Positions 3,940-12,071 of a DNA stretch of 17,544 nucleotides are shown here, in pieces. The stretch is taken from the NCBI GenBank assembly GCA_034440375.1, contig JAWXBZ010000187.1, forward strand, positions 1-17,544. The letters run 5' to 3'. Position 1 is the stretch's first letter. Every line of letters starts with the position of its first letter. Both the position numbers and the translations under genes were made by a program. Under the pieces are notes generated by a model. That model searched no databases. It was not told where the DNA came from and was given only the letters and a program-made list of their open reading frames with translations. This stretch comes from Candidatus Eiseniibacteriota bacterium (lineage in GTDB: Bacteria; Eisenbacteria; RBG-16-71-46; JABDJR01; JAWXBZ01).

Positions 3940-3945
3940 GCGTGG

Positions 3946-3951
3946 ACAGTA
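3946..3951 (-). promoter_or_regulatory. Putative -10 element (TACTGT) for a leaderless transcript of the glycosylation operon
   Basis: TAnnnT hexamer exactly 6 nt before GTG 3939, with no Shine-Dalgarno motif. Confidence 0.55.
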
Positions 3952-3977
3952 TCCCGCCGGTGGCCGGGCTACAAGCG

Positions 3978-4835
3978 ATGACAGAGGCCAGGACAATCCG
4001 CCCGCCGGATCGATCGGTCGAGCCGGCCTACTCGCGGTTGGCGCCGCACTACGATCGTGTCTTCGGGTCCTACGCGCGGGAACTGAACGGTTGGCTCATC
4101 CCATGGATCCGACGGCAGGATCCCCGTCCCGATTCCGTGGCCGACCTGGCCTGTGGCACCGGCACGACCGCCCTCGCGCTCGCCCGGGTGATTCCGCGGG
4201 TCCTGGCCATCGACCTCCGGCCGGAGTTCACCGCCATCGTTCGGGCGAGGGCCGGGAAGAGAGCTGCCACCCGTCACATCAGGACGCTCGTGGCCGACAT
4301 GCGGACCTTTCGCCTCGATCAGCCGGTCCAGCTGCTCACCTGCTTCTTCGACGCGCTGAATCATCTCCCCCGCCCGACCAACCTGTTACGCACCTTTCGT
4401 GCGGTGCACCGCGCCCTCGAGCCCGGCGGGATGTTTCTGTTCGACATCAACACGCCCTGGGCCCTGAAGAGGAGCTGGCCCGAGATGAAGGCCCTCTGGA
4501 AAGGAAAGGGGTGGTTCGCGGTGGCGCGGGGACGGTACGTGGAGGGTGGACAGAGTGCCGCAGGGGTCAGGACGTCCCGCGGCCATGGCGAATTCGACAT
4601 CCACTGGTTCGAGCGCGACCGGACCGGCACCTATCGTCCACGCGTCGAGCGCTTCCGCGAAATTGCCTGGACGAAGACGGAGATCCGTGCCGCGCTCAAG
4701 TCCGCCGGCTTTGTCGGAATCCGAACAGTCGATGAACCGGCCCTGGCACCATTCGTCGGCGAATCGGGTCGGGATCGAACGTTTTGGGTGGCACGGCGCG
4801 GGGAGGGGAACTCGTTCCGGAACGAGTTGGGATGA
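3978..4835 (+). CDS. Class I SAM-dependent methyltransferase, about 285 aa
   Basis: YSRLAPHYD N-terminus, motif I VADLACGTG, then AIDL, ADMRTF, TCFFDALNHL and LEPGGMFLFD. ATG 3978 is preferred over GTG 3942. Confidence 0.9.
   Translation: MTEARTIRPPDRSVEPAYSRLAPHYDRVFGSYARELNGWLIPWIRRQDPRPDSVADLACGTGTTALALARVIPRVLAIDLRPEFTAIVRARAGKRAATRHIRTLVADMRTFRLDQPVQLLTCFFDALNHLPRPTNLLRTFRAVHRALEPGGMFLFDINTPWALKRSWPEMKALWKGKGWFAVARGRYVEGGQSAAGVRTSRGHGEFDIHWFERDRTGTYRPRVERFREIAWTKTEIRAALKSAGFVGIRTVDEPALAPFVGESGRDRTFWVARRGEGNSFRNELG
4809..4828. repeat. Perfect 20-bp palindrome AACTCGTTCCGGAACGAGTT, copy 1
   Basis: Read directly; equals its own reverse complement. Lies in the last codons of the methyltransferase (NSFRNEL). 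21-bp identity with copy 2. Confidence 0.97.
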
Positions 4836-5059
4836 ACTCGCCTTTCTCGATATCGATTAGAAATAATCTCATCGCTGACGACGATTCTTGTTGACAATAT
4901 TTTCGCACTGACTGGTCCCTGCCCGCGGCCCCTCGATCACAGGCCCTCAACAAGGGCATCGCGGGCACTGGATCTCGTCTTGAGGCACCTTCCGAAGTCG
5001 CCGACGATTTCGTCGCCATCATCCCCCGGGACGTGACGCCCGGACGTCAAGGAGCCGGG

Positions 5060-5068
5060 TGATACATT
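5060..5068 (+). promoter_or_regulatory. Putative extended -10 element (TGATACATT) for a leaderless HNH transcript
   Basis: TGnTAnnnT ends 6 nt before ATG 5075. Confidence 0.6.
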
Positions 5069-5074
5069 TCTTGA

Positions 5075-6178
5075 ATGATCACTCACTGGACTACTTCGCT
5101 GACCCGGCTTACCAACGAGGCACTGCTCGTGCGCGTCCATGACCTCGCGCGCCGCGAGCGCCGGGCGACTGTCGGATTGATCGCCCACCTGGCCGAGCTG
5201 GATGAGAGACGCCTTTATCTCGACGAGGGATGTTCATCGCTTTTCACCTATTGCACCGAAGTCCTGCACTTTTCAGAACACGCCGCCTACAATCGCATCG
5301 AGTGCGCTCGGGCGGCGCGGCGATTTCCGCTGGTGCTGGATCGCCTGGCGGAGGGGTCGGTGCACCTGACAGCCGTTCGATTGCTGTCGCCGCACCTGAC
5401 GCCGGCCAATCATGCCGGGTTGCTTGATCGGGCGCGGCACCTGGGAAAGCGCGGGGTCGAGGAACTCATTGCAGCGATACGACCGCTGCCGGATGCGGCA
5501 ACGATGGTGAGGCGTCTATCGGCACGGAGGCCGGCAAGCAATTCACCGGTCGCGGCGATCCCGGTCCCAGCCGCGACGCTGCCATCCCATCAATCCGATG
5601 ACCCGACACCGCTGAAAGTCCGGCTGCCCGAGGCGGATCTCACGGCCGCGAAGTCCAACCTGGCCGCCGTTATCGCACCGCTCAGGCCCGGCCATTTCCG
5701 GGTCCAGTTCACGGCGGACCCTTCGATGCACCACGATCTCATGACGGCGCACGAGCTCCTGCGGCACCAGATTCCAGATGGTGATGCCGCCGCCGTCTTG
5801 AAGATGGCACTGAAGCTCCTGGTGGGCGAGCTCCGCCGGAAGAAATTTGCGACAACCGATCGACCGCGACGGAGCGCCCCGTCGGACCCCAACTCGCGCC
5901 ACATCCCCGCCGCCGTCCGTCGAGAAGTGGCGCGACGCGACGGCGACCGCTGCGCCTTCCATGGTCGGGATGGTCGCCGGTGCTCCGCGCGTGGCCCGCT
6001 CGAGTTTCATCATCTCGAGCCATTCGCCGTCGGGGGCCGGGCCACCGTCGACAACATCTCATTGCGCTGTCGGGCTCACAATTCGCATGAGGCGGTCAGA
6101 TGCTTTGGGCGGTTCCAACTCGTTCCGGAACGAGTTGTGTTCTCGGCGAATCCTGAGCTGTGTTCGGGCGAGGGCTAG
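5075..6178 (+). CDS. HNH endonuclease with a DUF222-like helical N-terminal region, 367 aa
   Basis: C-terminal RHIPAAVRREVARRDGDRC...RC...LEFHHLEPFAVGG...DNISLRCRAHN is an intact-looking HNH motif with Cys ligands. Helical N-terminus (LIAHLAELDERRLY...SLFTYC...AYNRI...ARRFP) and a Pro/Ala-rich linker. Confidence 0.9.
   Translation: MITHWTTSLTRLTNEALLVRVHDLARRERRATVGLIAHLAELDERRLYLDEGCSSLFTYCTEVLHFSEHAAYNRIECARAARRFPLVLDRLAEGSVHLTAVRLLSPHLTPANHAGLLDRARHLGKRGVEELIAAIRPLPDAATMVRRLSARRPASNSPVAAIPVPAATLPSHQSDDPTPLKVRLPEADLTAAKSNLAAVIAPLRPGHFRVQFTADPSMHHDLMTAHELLRHQIPDGDAAAVLKMALKLLVGELRRKKFATTDRPRRSAPSDPNSRHIPAAVRREVARRDGDRCAFHGRDGRRCSARGPLEFHHLEPFAVGGRATVDNISLRCRAHNSHEAVRCFGRFQLVPERVVFSANPELCSGEG
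6116..6137. repeat. Perfect 22-bp palindrome CAACTCGTTCCGGAACGAGTTG, copy 2
   Basis: Read directly; lies just after the HNH motif, within the last ~20 codons of the nuclease gene. Confidence 0.97.
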
Positions 6179-6228
6179 TTCATTGCGATTGCGCTGGGAT
6201 GGACTGACGGAGGGGCTGAATCGTCCCC

Positions 6229-6879
6229 GTGGCAAGTACGACCATTCGCCTGGTGGGCGAAGAGGTCGATGTCACACTTGAAGGTGACGGCTATCCAGGT
6301 GGCCGCGTCAACGTGACCTACTGGTTGGCCAACCCCGCTGCCACGCCGACGACGGTCGAGATGACGTTTCTCCTGCCGGCCGATGATCTTTGCGGACATT
6401 CCCAGGCTTCATCACGGACAACAGTTCCAGTATTCGACTCGATCGGCCCGCCTCTGGGCCGGGCGACTCGAATATGCGTATTTCAAATTCGGACGAATCG
6501 ACTCCCGAATCTTATGGCCGGCCGCAATCCCCTGATCAGCGAGTGCGCGTCGGCTTCCATCTCTCCTCCTGGCTGGTTCGTGGATGCCGGGGTCATCACG
6601 TGGCCCTTTGAGGATTGAGAGCCGGACGCCGATATCTCGCTCACCGACGAGTTCAGCCCAGTTGAAAATCCCTACGACGGCCGTTCGCGCCGGTACACGA
6701 CAGGGGAAATCCTCGAACGGATCCGGGACGTATTTACCGAGCTCCACGGGGATCCGACCTGTTCACCGCACCGGCGGAATGAGGTTGAACAAGCCAATCG
6801 AGAGATCTTCTCAGCACTCCAGGCCCAAGTCACTTTCGATCCCTCAACGCTGTTACCTTTTCCGCCGGCTGAAGAGTGA
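6229..6879 (+). pseudogene. Decayed gene interrupted by an in-frame TGA at 6616-6618; loosely resembles DUF4424/YARHG-type exported proteins
   Basis: The frame continues past the stop: ...ISPPGWFVDAGVITWPFED*EPDADISLTDEF...YDGRSRRYT...RIRDVFTELHG...NEVEQANREIF... to TGA 6877-6879. The N-terminal IRLVGEEVDV...VNVTYWLAN...TVEMTF recalls DUF4424. The family call is from memory only. Confidence 0.45.
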
Positions 6880-6917
6880 GTGACCGCTGCGGACAGCGCC
6901 GCTGGTAGCCTCGCCTG

Positions 6918-11329: not shown

Positions 11330-11677
11330 ATGTCCGATGCCAGCAAGGTCACGCTTCGAAAGGTGAAAGACATCCTCGTTGTTCAGCTTCCGGCCGCCCT
11401 GTCCGCCGACACCAGGGAAGACTTCAATGAGAAGGTCCAGTACGCCCTGGCCGACACCCCCGCCGTCCTGATCCTCGATTTCGCCAAAGTCCGGTCGGCC
11501 GACGCGGAGGGCCTGCAATCGATTCATTTCGCGTTCCTGCGATGCGATGAGATCGACACCCCCCTGATCCTGGCAGCGGTCTCCGACACCATTCGACCGG
11601 CACTGGTCGAGGCGGGATATTTCGAGAAGGCGGAAGAAGCGGTGACGGCGGATGAGGCGGTGGAGAAGAATCTTTAG
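11330..11677 (+). CDS. STAS-domain protein (anti-sigma factor antagonist-like), 115 aa
   Basis: Size and pattern ILVVQL...LILDFAKVRSADAEGL...LILAAVSDTIRPAL...EEAVTADEAV. AGGGG precedes the ATG. Confidence 0.78.
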   Translation: MSDASKVTLRKVKDILVVQLPAALSADTREDFNEKVQYALADTPAVLILDFAKVRSADAEGLQSIHFAFLRCDEIDTPLILAAVSDTIRPALVEAGYFEKAEEAVTADEAVEKNL

Positions 11678-11990
11678 CGGCGCAAAAGTCCGCGCCCGCA
11701 GGTAATCACCGCCTCGATGGCCCGATCCACGTCGGCCCGATGGGTCCGGTTGCTGAGAACCACCATTCGAAGGACGAACTTTCCATCGAGCTGCGGAGGC
11801 CGATCAGATCGGCCATCCAACGGATCAACTGATTCTCCATCCGCGCGGCGCCGGGGCTGGAGTGCGAGTGGGCCGAGAACGCGTTGGCGTTGGCGGCCAG
11901 GAAATCGGCCAGGGCCGAGTGGTAGAGCTGACTGCTGGGGATGTAGGCCATCATGCCGGCATGGGCACTGTTGATCCCAAGCTGATGAAG
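11674..11990 (-). pseudogene. Remnant of a group II PLP-dependent (aromatic amino acid-type) decarboxylase
   Basis: GINSAHAGMMAYIPSSQLYHSALADFLAA...SPGAARMENQLIRWMADLIGL (early part) is joined out of frame near 11795 to QLDGKFVLRMVVLSNRTHRADVDRAIEAV (extreme C-terminus). The PLP-binding core and the native start are missing. Confidence 0.8.
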
Positions 11991-12020
11991 CCATGTCTGG
12001 AAACCGTCGACCCTCCCCCG

Positions 12021-12026
12021 TATACT
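12021..12026 (+). promoter_or_regulatory. Putative -10 element (TATACT) of the sdh operon
   Basis: Near-consensus hexamer 45 nt upstream of ATG 12072; GGAG at 12059-12062; no good -35. Confidence 0.4.
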
Positions 12027-12071
12027 GCGCCCCTTCCAAGCAGGACGTCATGCACCTCGGAGAAATGGCCG

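Follow-up and report, generated by a model that had tools for sequence, protein, structure and literature searches.

HNH nuclease genes accompanied by perfect 20-bp palindromes: a probable protein-DNA recognition system with likeness to REP/RAYT

Here we examine a 17,544-nucleotide stretch of DNA from a Candidatus Eiseniibacteriota bacterium (contig JAWXBZ010000187.1 of assembly GCA_034440375.1; hereafter the window), in which a gene for a putative HNH nuclease is accompanied by two identical and perfect 20-bp palindromes. Comparison of homologous loci together with structural modelling indicates that the palindrome is most likely the binding site of the nuclease encoded between its copies, and that gene and palindrome are probably a real, non-random protein-DNA recognition system of an undescribed variant. 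This idea had been put forward in the initial annotation of the window and is now backed by several lines of evidence: the co-occurrence of gene and palindrome, co-variation between residues of the protein and bases of the site, a ParB-like fold and a dimer model. Taken as a whole, we consider it reasonably probable that the best explanation of the locus is a dimeric, sequence-specific nuclease that reads its own palindromes, with these sites serving as repair junctions and the gene expressed from a stretched promoter. The features at the centre of this account are as follows.

4809..4828, no strand: left 20-bp palindrome, TTCC core type; its start is the exact stop-codon position of methyltransferase homologues
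6117..6136, no strand: right 20-bp palindrome, identical to the left, within the final codons of the nuclease gene
5075..6178, forward strand: nuclease gene, 367 aa; predicted N-terminal coiled coil and ParB/KorB/Noc-like DNA-binding domain, variable linker, ribbon-helix-helix (RHH) and HNH

The palindrome family and its association with the nuclease gene

The palindrome, AACTCGTTCCGGAACGAGTT, is its own reverse complement over 20 bp without a gap, and its two copies in the window match over 21 nt in direct and 22 nt in inverted orientation. Both its perfection at the two positions and the 21 identical nucleotides were thus confirmed as originally described, and a scan of the window allowing up to four mismatches found no third copy, in agreement with the earlier statement that no other full copy is present. 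The description of an HNH gene lying between the copies was right in that the list of open reading frames (ORFs) and a Pfam scan revealed no transposase or integrase between them, but the right copy sits within the last 20 codons of the HNH ORF rather than past it, and the left copy overlaps the final codons of a methyltransferase ORF. An in-frame right copy is also visible in three homologues (P0002, P0003 and P0005).

The initial annotation had further suggested that the 20-mer be counted across the genome and related to paralogous HNH genes. In the source assembly (G000; 3.96 Mb, 64% GC; the window is its contig C187) the exact 20-mer occurs seven times, against an arithmetical expectation of about 4e-6 for a given 20-mer, and 100 homologous loci held 97 motifs in 0.42 Mb compared with 3 in 1.25 Mb of shuffled sequence, so that the palindromes are not explained by chance. 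A looser rule yields 40 sites in G000, a few of them probably chance matches, including 10 with a TTCCGGAA core, 12 with CACCGGTG and 12 of a GTCC/GCCT type; 33 of 36 sites lie outside crude gene calls, an approximate figure given that those calls missed the HNH ORF of the window. Four paralogous genes sharing 38-57% identity are present in G000, and each adjoins its cognate palindrome type: TTCC on C187 and C214, CACC on C96, and a third type, on both sides of the gene, on C64.

The family to which the gene belongs is large, with 3,643 homologues among 8,000 scored candidates and 8,797 representative proteins at E <=1e-30. It is found in 132 of the 206 genomes of the phylum, with four copies in G000, nine or more in others and a single copy in G229, G211 and G219. 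Within a search zone comprising 600 bp upstream, the gene itself and 400 bp downstream, the motif was found at 13 of the 20 loci from genomes and 53 of the 80 from metagenomes, and on both sides at 2 of 16 and 11 of 45 loci, respectively, with enough flanking sequence. After pooling and de-duplication at 90% identity (202 loci reduced to 152, with flanks that are not always complete) and under a looser motif rule, 126 of the 152 non-redundant loci have the motif and 26 have none. Copies lie upstream of the gene at 53 loci, downstream at 78, inside the linker at 30 and on both sides at 28, the two copies at these last loci being of the same type (23/28 within 3 mismatches); an upstream copy is typically found 10-70 bp 5' of a TTGAC box described below.

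The association extends to whole genomes: 67/132 gene-bearing genomes hold at least seven pattern copies compared with 1/74 gene-lacking genomes, whereas a reversed control pattern shows no such split (34/132 and 23/74), these counts including kin that are not independent. In three families whose members mostly bear the gene, 16 of 17 genomes without a gene match have at most four pattern copies. Genomes with a single gene carry the cognate type, G229 (residue N73) having 17 TTCC copies, G211 (G73) nine GTCC copies and G219 (N73) five TTCC copies. Searches of viral contigs gave no match to the palindrome pattern, and plasmid and phage collections gave none to the nuclease protein. One genome, G206, has 12 pattern copies and no gene match at E 1e-40 in an assembly that is 91% complete; the gene has been either lost or left unassembled.

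Several variations on this arrangement were seen. In-frame palindromes occur in the variable linker, often in tandem and 440-620 nt into the gene (L349, L039, L058, L060, L329, L337 and others); 42 of 45 such internal copies share one reading phase, and L349 has five, of mixed types. The distant homologues L044, L049 and L054 have other repeated palindromes nearby, with cores such as ATCCCGCGGGAT, TTCACCCGGGTGAA and TCTCCCCGGGGAGA, in a layout like that of parS or NBS sites. In G000, about ten 60-bp doublets combine a GTCC-type and a CACC-type copy, in fixed order, around a 20-bp semi-palindromic spacer that forms a loose inverted repeat; these may represent a non-autonomous unit or serve two paralogues as a site. 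The TTCC type of the window occurs singly in G000 and not in doublets.

60-bp doublets in G000, first five: C11:44986-45045, C24:20928-20987, C41:46364-46423, C49:5154-5213, C84:9979-10038
60-bp doublets in G000, other five: C167:5648-5707, C184:39-98, C217:7673-7732, C235:52446-52505, C263:2408-2467

Two further palindrome clusters were noted in the same genome: three parS-like palindromes adjoining a parB gene (C8:23251-23350), and a different 20-bp palindrome in five copies with 71-73-bp spacing, resembling a CRISPR array (C181:13-322).

The predicted nuclease and its co-variation with the palindrome

Structural prediction divides the protein into three modules.

5144..5485, forward strand: residues 24-137, ParB-like DNA-binding domain; candidate specificity residues H69, Y72, N73, T99 and R102
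5687..5854, forward strand: residues 205-260, RHH-like module; strand 210-213 pairs across the modelled dimer
5885..6118, forward strand: residues 271-348, zinc-type HNH domain; conserved C293, C303, E310, H313, C332, H335 and N336

The sole Pfam match of the window protein is a sub-threshold HNH domain. Among 53 aligned homologues Pfam recognizes HNH in all 53 and DUF222 in one (E 0.0014), so that the DUF222-like N-terminus originally assigned to the window protein is weakly founded; Atlas neighbour clusters of the family are 21-23% DUF222, and the family is a distant relative of DUF222-HNH genes. An AlphaFold2 model (mean pLDDT 80.6) begins with a helical part at the N-terminus and continues through a disordered linker and a strand with two helices to an HNH domain. 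In structural searches, residues 24-137 matched the DNA-binding domains of ParB, KorB and Spo0J at middling scores (Z 7.2, 6.9, 6.3 and 5.8), the best ParB-type match having an rmsd of 8.1 over 117 residues and the KorB match (Z 6.9) one of 3.5 over 97. Residues 205-261 matched the RHH proteins MazE6, TraM, ParD and NikR (Z ~5), and residues 271-348 matched HNH nucleases (Z 7.0), with similarity to McrA-type and Cap5 enzymes. A sequence search of the PDB returned weak HNH matches only, a first ParB motif scan found no match while a looser one did, and residues 1-150 folded from the single sequence gave a poor model (pLDDT 50.5). The N-terminal CTPase of ParB is absent, there being just 23 residues before the DNA-binding match and no ParB N-terminal family detected by Pfam in the 53 members. 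Profile comparison with the host's own ParB (E 0.0038, probability 8.7%) aligned T99 and R102 with the G and R of a G-H-A-R motif, which we take, from their spacing, to be G201 and R204 of Caulobacter ParB. A study of ParB counts G201 among the residues that set specificity and describes R204 as a conserved contact to DNA at parS (PMC7383237).

Modelling of two copies of the protein gave a score of 0.83, compared with 0.00 for the best control, and passed the threshold, as did 20 of 30 solved pairs and 1 of 23 single chains. Runs agreed in at least 64% of contacts, with pLDDT of at least 66. The interface is formed by an antiparallel coiled coil (residues 14-45) and the RHH strand (210-213), and part of the score may reflect likeness to known structures, because RHH dimers have already been solved. 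On the basis of these models, the gene product would be a homodimeric, sequence-specific DNA-binding nuclease whose ParB/Noc-like helix-turn-helix domain reads the 20-bp palindrome directly, with one half-site per subunit, while the coiled coil and RHH module would hold the dimer together and the linker may give the HNH domain the reach to nick or cut DNA close to occupied sites.

Co-variation across the 126 non-redundant loci with a palindrome connects this domain to its proposed site: residues 69, 72, 73, 99 and 102 track palindrome bases. For residue 73 and base 7, G is paired with G in 32/33 loci, N with T in 30/38, K with C in 23/26 and L with G in 11/13; for residue 99 and base 8, T goes with T (82/94) and S or A with C (28/32). 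Residue 69 follows base 5 (H with C, 75/81) and residue 72 base 4 (S or A with A, 6/7). The rule for residue 73, derived earlier, fits all 18 held-out loci, which came from one genus-level group after exclusion of one locus without a palindrome, one without an N-terminus and repeats already counted, and both types occur side by side in single genomes. With H69, Y72, N73, T99 and R102, the window protein predicts its own site.

To the question of whether palindromes follow protein phylogeny, raised with the first description of the locus, this co-variation gives a positive answer that tests of phylogenetically independent pairs do not make significant. On the best of the trees, which were built for the pair tests without the candidate specificity columns, independent contrasts rank residues 99 and 73 first and second of 281 for base 7, residue 99 first for base 8, residues 76 and 69 first and third for base 5, and residue 72 second for base 4. 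Average reversals in the pair tests amount to at most 0.2 pairs. These comparisons strongly indicate that protein and site changed together, which would have given each paralogue a palindrome type of its own.

The likeness of the HNH domain to McrA-type and Cap5 nucleases raises the prospect of a self/non-self or addiction system, in which the protein would mark the chromosome at palindromes and the nuclease would attack unmarked DNA or kill cells that lose the gene. The expansion of cognate sites where a single gene resides would fit such a role, as would weak PADLOC matches (E 0.001-0.01) to one of four proteins examined. However, PADLOC found no match for the other three and thus no convincing one, no defence genes were present among the ten window ORFs scanned, 5-40 sites per genome are sparse for marking, and the placement of sites at breakpoints of homology would not be predicted. 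We regard this explanation as very improbable.

Homology breakpoints, empty sites and a stretched leader

Palindromes recur at breakpoints of homology, and in the window one such breakpoint coincides with the lost stop codon of the flanking gene.

3942..4835, forward strand: flanking host SAM methyltransferase; last 8 codons supplied by the palindrome and cassette

All five of the closest methyltransferase homologues stop three residues after the sequence VARR, exactly where the left copy begins; a search of methyltransferase orthologues found none close enough to provide an empty site for the window locus. Among cassettes in unrelated flanks, homology starts at the upstream copy in four groups and, on the right, continues 0-100 bp beyond the right copy, while in cassettes that lack a left copy it starts at the TTGAC box. 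Similar junctions were found away from the gene: between G229 and G219 (four of nine G229 regions were compared with relatives), one stretch of homology ends at a shared copy, another begins 1 bp past a copy that is absent from G219, and an 89-codon open frame that G219 lacks is enclosed by two palindromes separated by 364 bp. In G042, a solo copy follows the gene that in G041 stands before a full cassette, with downstream synteny lost.

These junctions, together with the same-type copies on both sides of the gene at 28 of 152 loci, are what would be expected if the locus were a compact mobile element, with the palindromes forming its termini or its duplicated target, the nuclease excising or inverting the unit and solo copies left as footprints; the palindrome pair around a short passenger frame would also fit. 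That explanation, proposed for the window in the initial annotation, fares poorly in other comparisons and appears distinctly unlikely. Empty orthologous sites at three loci (L195, L231 and L230) have neither palindrome nor footprint, each corresponding filled cassette having one copy only; right-hand homology passes the right copy, homology can begin at the TTGAC box where a left copy is absent, and G000 contains no near-identical multi-copy elements. Solo copies have no shared flank and no target duplication, apart from a bias for C before and G after. A GGAGGGG that precedes the left copy and recurs by eye at 6210-6216 is more simply the ribosome site of the next gene than a target duplication. 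In assembled contigs from 4 of 19 sequencing runs there was no junction skipping 4809-6117 and no inversion junction, which is evidence neither way given that contigs drop rare variants. Overall, the palindromes look like binding sites that are maintained and frequently coincide with junctions, and not like obligatory ends, and, because left copies often coincide with the start of cassette homology, they may still act as junctions or cut sites.

Maintenance of sites is also what would be seen if a domesticated DNA-binding protein used its palindromes as an autoregulatory operator and as chromosome-organising or protective sites, like parS, NBS or matS, the nuclease moving no DNA and nearby breakpoints being ordinary intergenic turnover around a selected motif. 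Between G229 and G219 solo copies are perfectly or nearly kept while their flanks diverge, one of them being perfect between the species; several cassettes are syntenic and vertically inherited; and the position of copies close to the TTGAC box, the ParB-like and RHH folds and the lack of plasmid, phage and viral matches would all suit such a protein. Against this stand its patchy presence with many diverged paralogues per genome, cassettes in unrelated flanks, copies inside the gene's own linker, the conservation of the HNH residues (each of the seven kept in 145-151 of 152 loci) and a specificity that diversifies rapidly, unlike the conserved parS. On this evidence domestication seems to us rather unlikely.

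Between the left palindrome and the nuclease gene lies a leader with two distant promoter-like boxes.

4891..4896, forward strand: TTGACA box resembling a -35 element, 185 nt 5' of the HNH start; homologous loci conserve it
4902..5050, no strand: spacer of ~149 bp; length conserved, sequence not; no conserved RNA fold; ~10-bp periodic composition across homologues
5060..5068, forward strand: extended -10-like box (TG-n-TACATT), 169 nt after the TTGACA start

A TTGAC box about 185 nt 5' of the start is found in the window and in many homologues, and its separation from the palindrome varies. The distance from this box to the extended -10-like box is 167-171 bp in 81 of 137 loci, with a mode of 169, and independent weight matrices allowed 8-330 bp, trained on a subset of the tested loci, gave 167-171 in 84 of the 85 loci with two strong boxes. 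A leader pattern permitting 157-187 produced 88 matches in 39 of 206 genomes, all gene-bearing and all matches 171-176 long, compared with two for the control; the presence of the gene was scored here per genome and not per match. In G000 the sole box pair at 165-173 spacing is that of the window. In another genus, one of eight leader-pattern matches has no nuclease gene nearby (L354, G042:C2:1376332-1376506) and is either chance or an orphan leader. The boxes of a normal sigma-70 promoter are 20 bp apart, and the leader thus contains 149 bp extra. Identity within the spacer is near random (0.31 vs 0.27), and it has a phased period of 9.75-10.5 bp that was seen again in the subset of loci with spacings other than 169. 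A standard promoter scan of the sequence found no promoter.

The geometry of the -10-like box suggests a leaderless transcript starting at the ATG, and the two boxes may be brought together, or occluded, by wrapping of the periodic spacer around a protein, for which the gyrase motif, with its 10.75-bp period, offers a precedent of periodic wrapped DNA in the parts of the published text compared (PMC6379681). The upstream palindrome may also regulate this stretched promoter. Two other ideas about the leader were rejected. A guide RNA found no backing in an Rfam search (no match), in leader folding (z -0.42, 2 of 39 leaders below z -2) or in a consensus structure, none being found; excision of the spacer to restore a normal promoter was unsupported, given four collapsed-pattern matches in 206 genomes with no gene in their flanks and none among 133 loci.

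A number of observations weigh against the self-reading nuclease and its repair junctions that we favour. The ParB match is middling (Z <8, with the low profile-to-sequence probability given above) and Foldseek gave no match at E 0.001. The tests of phylogenetically independent pairs, which are under-powered, exceed 0.05 (the best median p being 0.0625, with 2-9 pairs on branches that have support), so that in statistical terms shared ancestry may account for the co-variation. Periodicity of the spacer is modest (p 0.00-0.09 across 15 tests). Three of the seven G229 sites compared have breakpoints 45-65 bp from the palindrome, and at L195, L231 and L230 breakpoints lie away from palindromes and pieces of kinase genes travel along. 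Two genomes with incomplete assemblies, G212 and G216, each have a solo type for which no matching gene was found. Finally, identities of just 38-57% among the paralogues of G000 give no sign of recent spread there.

With these points taken into account, we still favour a dimeric nuclease reading its own sites. Such sites would cluster at the gene, upstream of the promoter, in the linker and at the 3' end, and would also be deposited or kept elsewhere, mostly between genes, like REPs around RAYT genes. In the weakest steps of this account, breaks at the sites would create junctions where host repair gains, loses or exchanges DNA, and repair at these junctions may spread the gene together with more palindromes and small passenger genes, leaving neither precise ends nor duplicated targets.

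Several neighbouring features deserve mention. In Vicinamibacterales (L195, L225-L231 and L028) genes of a greatly expanded Ser/Thr kinase family, or pieces of such genes, are found time and again directly beside the cassette, and the kinase pieces are gained or lost together with the cassette. The gene following the cassette in the window (6229-6900) looks split into overlapping short ORFs (6229-6618 and 6584-6883), the first without a Pfam match. Further along (11330-12051) lie, by eye, what are presumably a small STAS-like ORF and a truncated decarboxylase-like fragment, before genes that we take to be succinate dehydrogenase-like.

Relation to known systems and wider meaning

Judged by analogy, the palindrome-nuclease partnership appears to work like REP/RAYT with an HNH nuclease in place of the usual enzyme, and the REP/RAYT parallel drawn when the locus was first described was apt. 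As far as the accessible text on REP/REPIN and RAYT goes (PMC3337134), the two share palindromes of ~20 nt that are multi-copy and mostly extragenic, adjoin the gene of a cognate nuclease, fall into several groups by sequence within a genome and are in part arranged as doublets. They differ in that an HNH enzyme and a ParB-like reader are found here rather than an HUH/Y1 transposase, in that the palindromes here are perfect, gapless and present in tens rather than hundreds of copies, and in that the type of the window is single and the gene often multi-copy. The family falls outside REP/RAYT because it has no HUH enzyme, HNH being the only nuclease domain that Pfam detects in the 53 members. 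It likewise lacks the features of insertion sequences, there being no transposase or recombinase gene and no precise ends, target duplication or footprint at the three filled/empty loci.

The REP13E12/DUF222-HNH genes of mycobacteria, according to the sections of the literature at hand (PMC13157036, PMC3381160, PMC10589994), are also dispersed, multi-copy genes with a helical N-terminus and a C-terminal HNH domain, and have been reported at rearrangement breakpoints. The DUF222 match of the present family is faint, and the sections compared describe no cognate palindrome, specificity code or stretched promoter such as those found here. With ParB-parS and Noc-NBS the nuclease would share, to the extent covered by the text compared (PMC7383237), a dimeric helix-turn-helix domain that reads a palindrome, its specificity being set by a handful of residues in the recognition helix and in the one after it; unlike them, it has no CTPase domain or ParA partner, is fused to RHH and HNH modules, and has 20-bp sites and a specificity that diversifies between paralogues. 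Free-standing HNH homing endonucleases and IscB/OMEGA systems are likewise selfish-looking single HNH genes of patchy distribution. Unlike a homing endonuclease, the gene here carries its recognition site, and the empty alleles examined lack it; unlike IscB/OMEGA, there is no RuvC, Rfam match or conserved RNA structure, and the IscB model scored 18.2 bits against a cut-off of 175, over the HNH part only. The gyrase motif/BIME-2, as far as its published description was seen (PMC6379681), resembles the leader in being a degenerate sequence of 130-150 bp with a periodic GC signal from DNA wrapping and an association with REPs, and differs in its 10.75-bp period, as opposed to ~9.75-10.25 bp here, and from the fixed spacing between promoter-like boxes seen here. 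A literature search, confined largely to papers open without subscription and to their main text, found no description of this architecture, palindrome or leader.

A more far-reaching version of our account is that of a transposase-free, self-propagating class comprising thousands of protein clusters, in which a ParB-like reader joined to an HNH domain writes and uses its own palindromes as junctions where DNA, its own gene and passenger genes included, is captured and moved, with a natural residue-to-base code and a split sigma-70 promoter whose -35 and -10 boxes would come together only on wrapping of the 149-bp spacer around a protein in the fashion of a nucleosome; this version is in our judgement doubtful.

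Together these findings concern a very large nuclease family for which no function has been described. With a probable DNA site now named, its binding, cleavage and mobility can be tested directly, and the DUF222-HNH/13E12 repeat genes, long unexplained, become easier to approach. The residue-base table amounts to a natural catalogue of helix-turn-helix specificities on 20-bp targets, with possible use in compact site-specific nucleases. The length-conserved, sequence-free 149-bp spacer, for which we found no precedent, would represent a new regulatory geometry if the wrapping is true, and the pairing of REP-like palindromes with another enzyme class, of unrelated chemistry, would be informative about the origins of such repeats.

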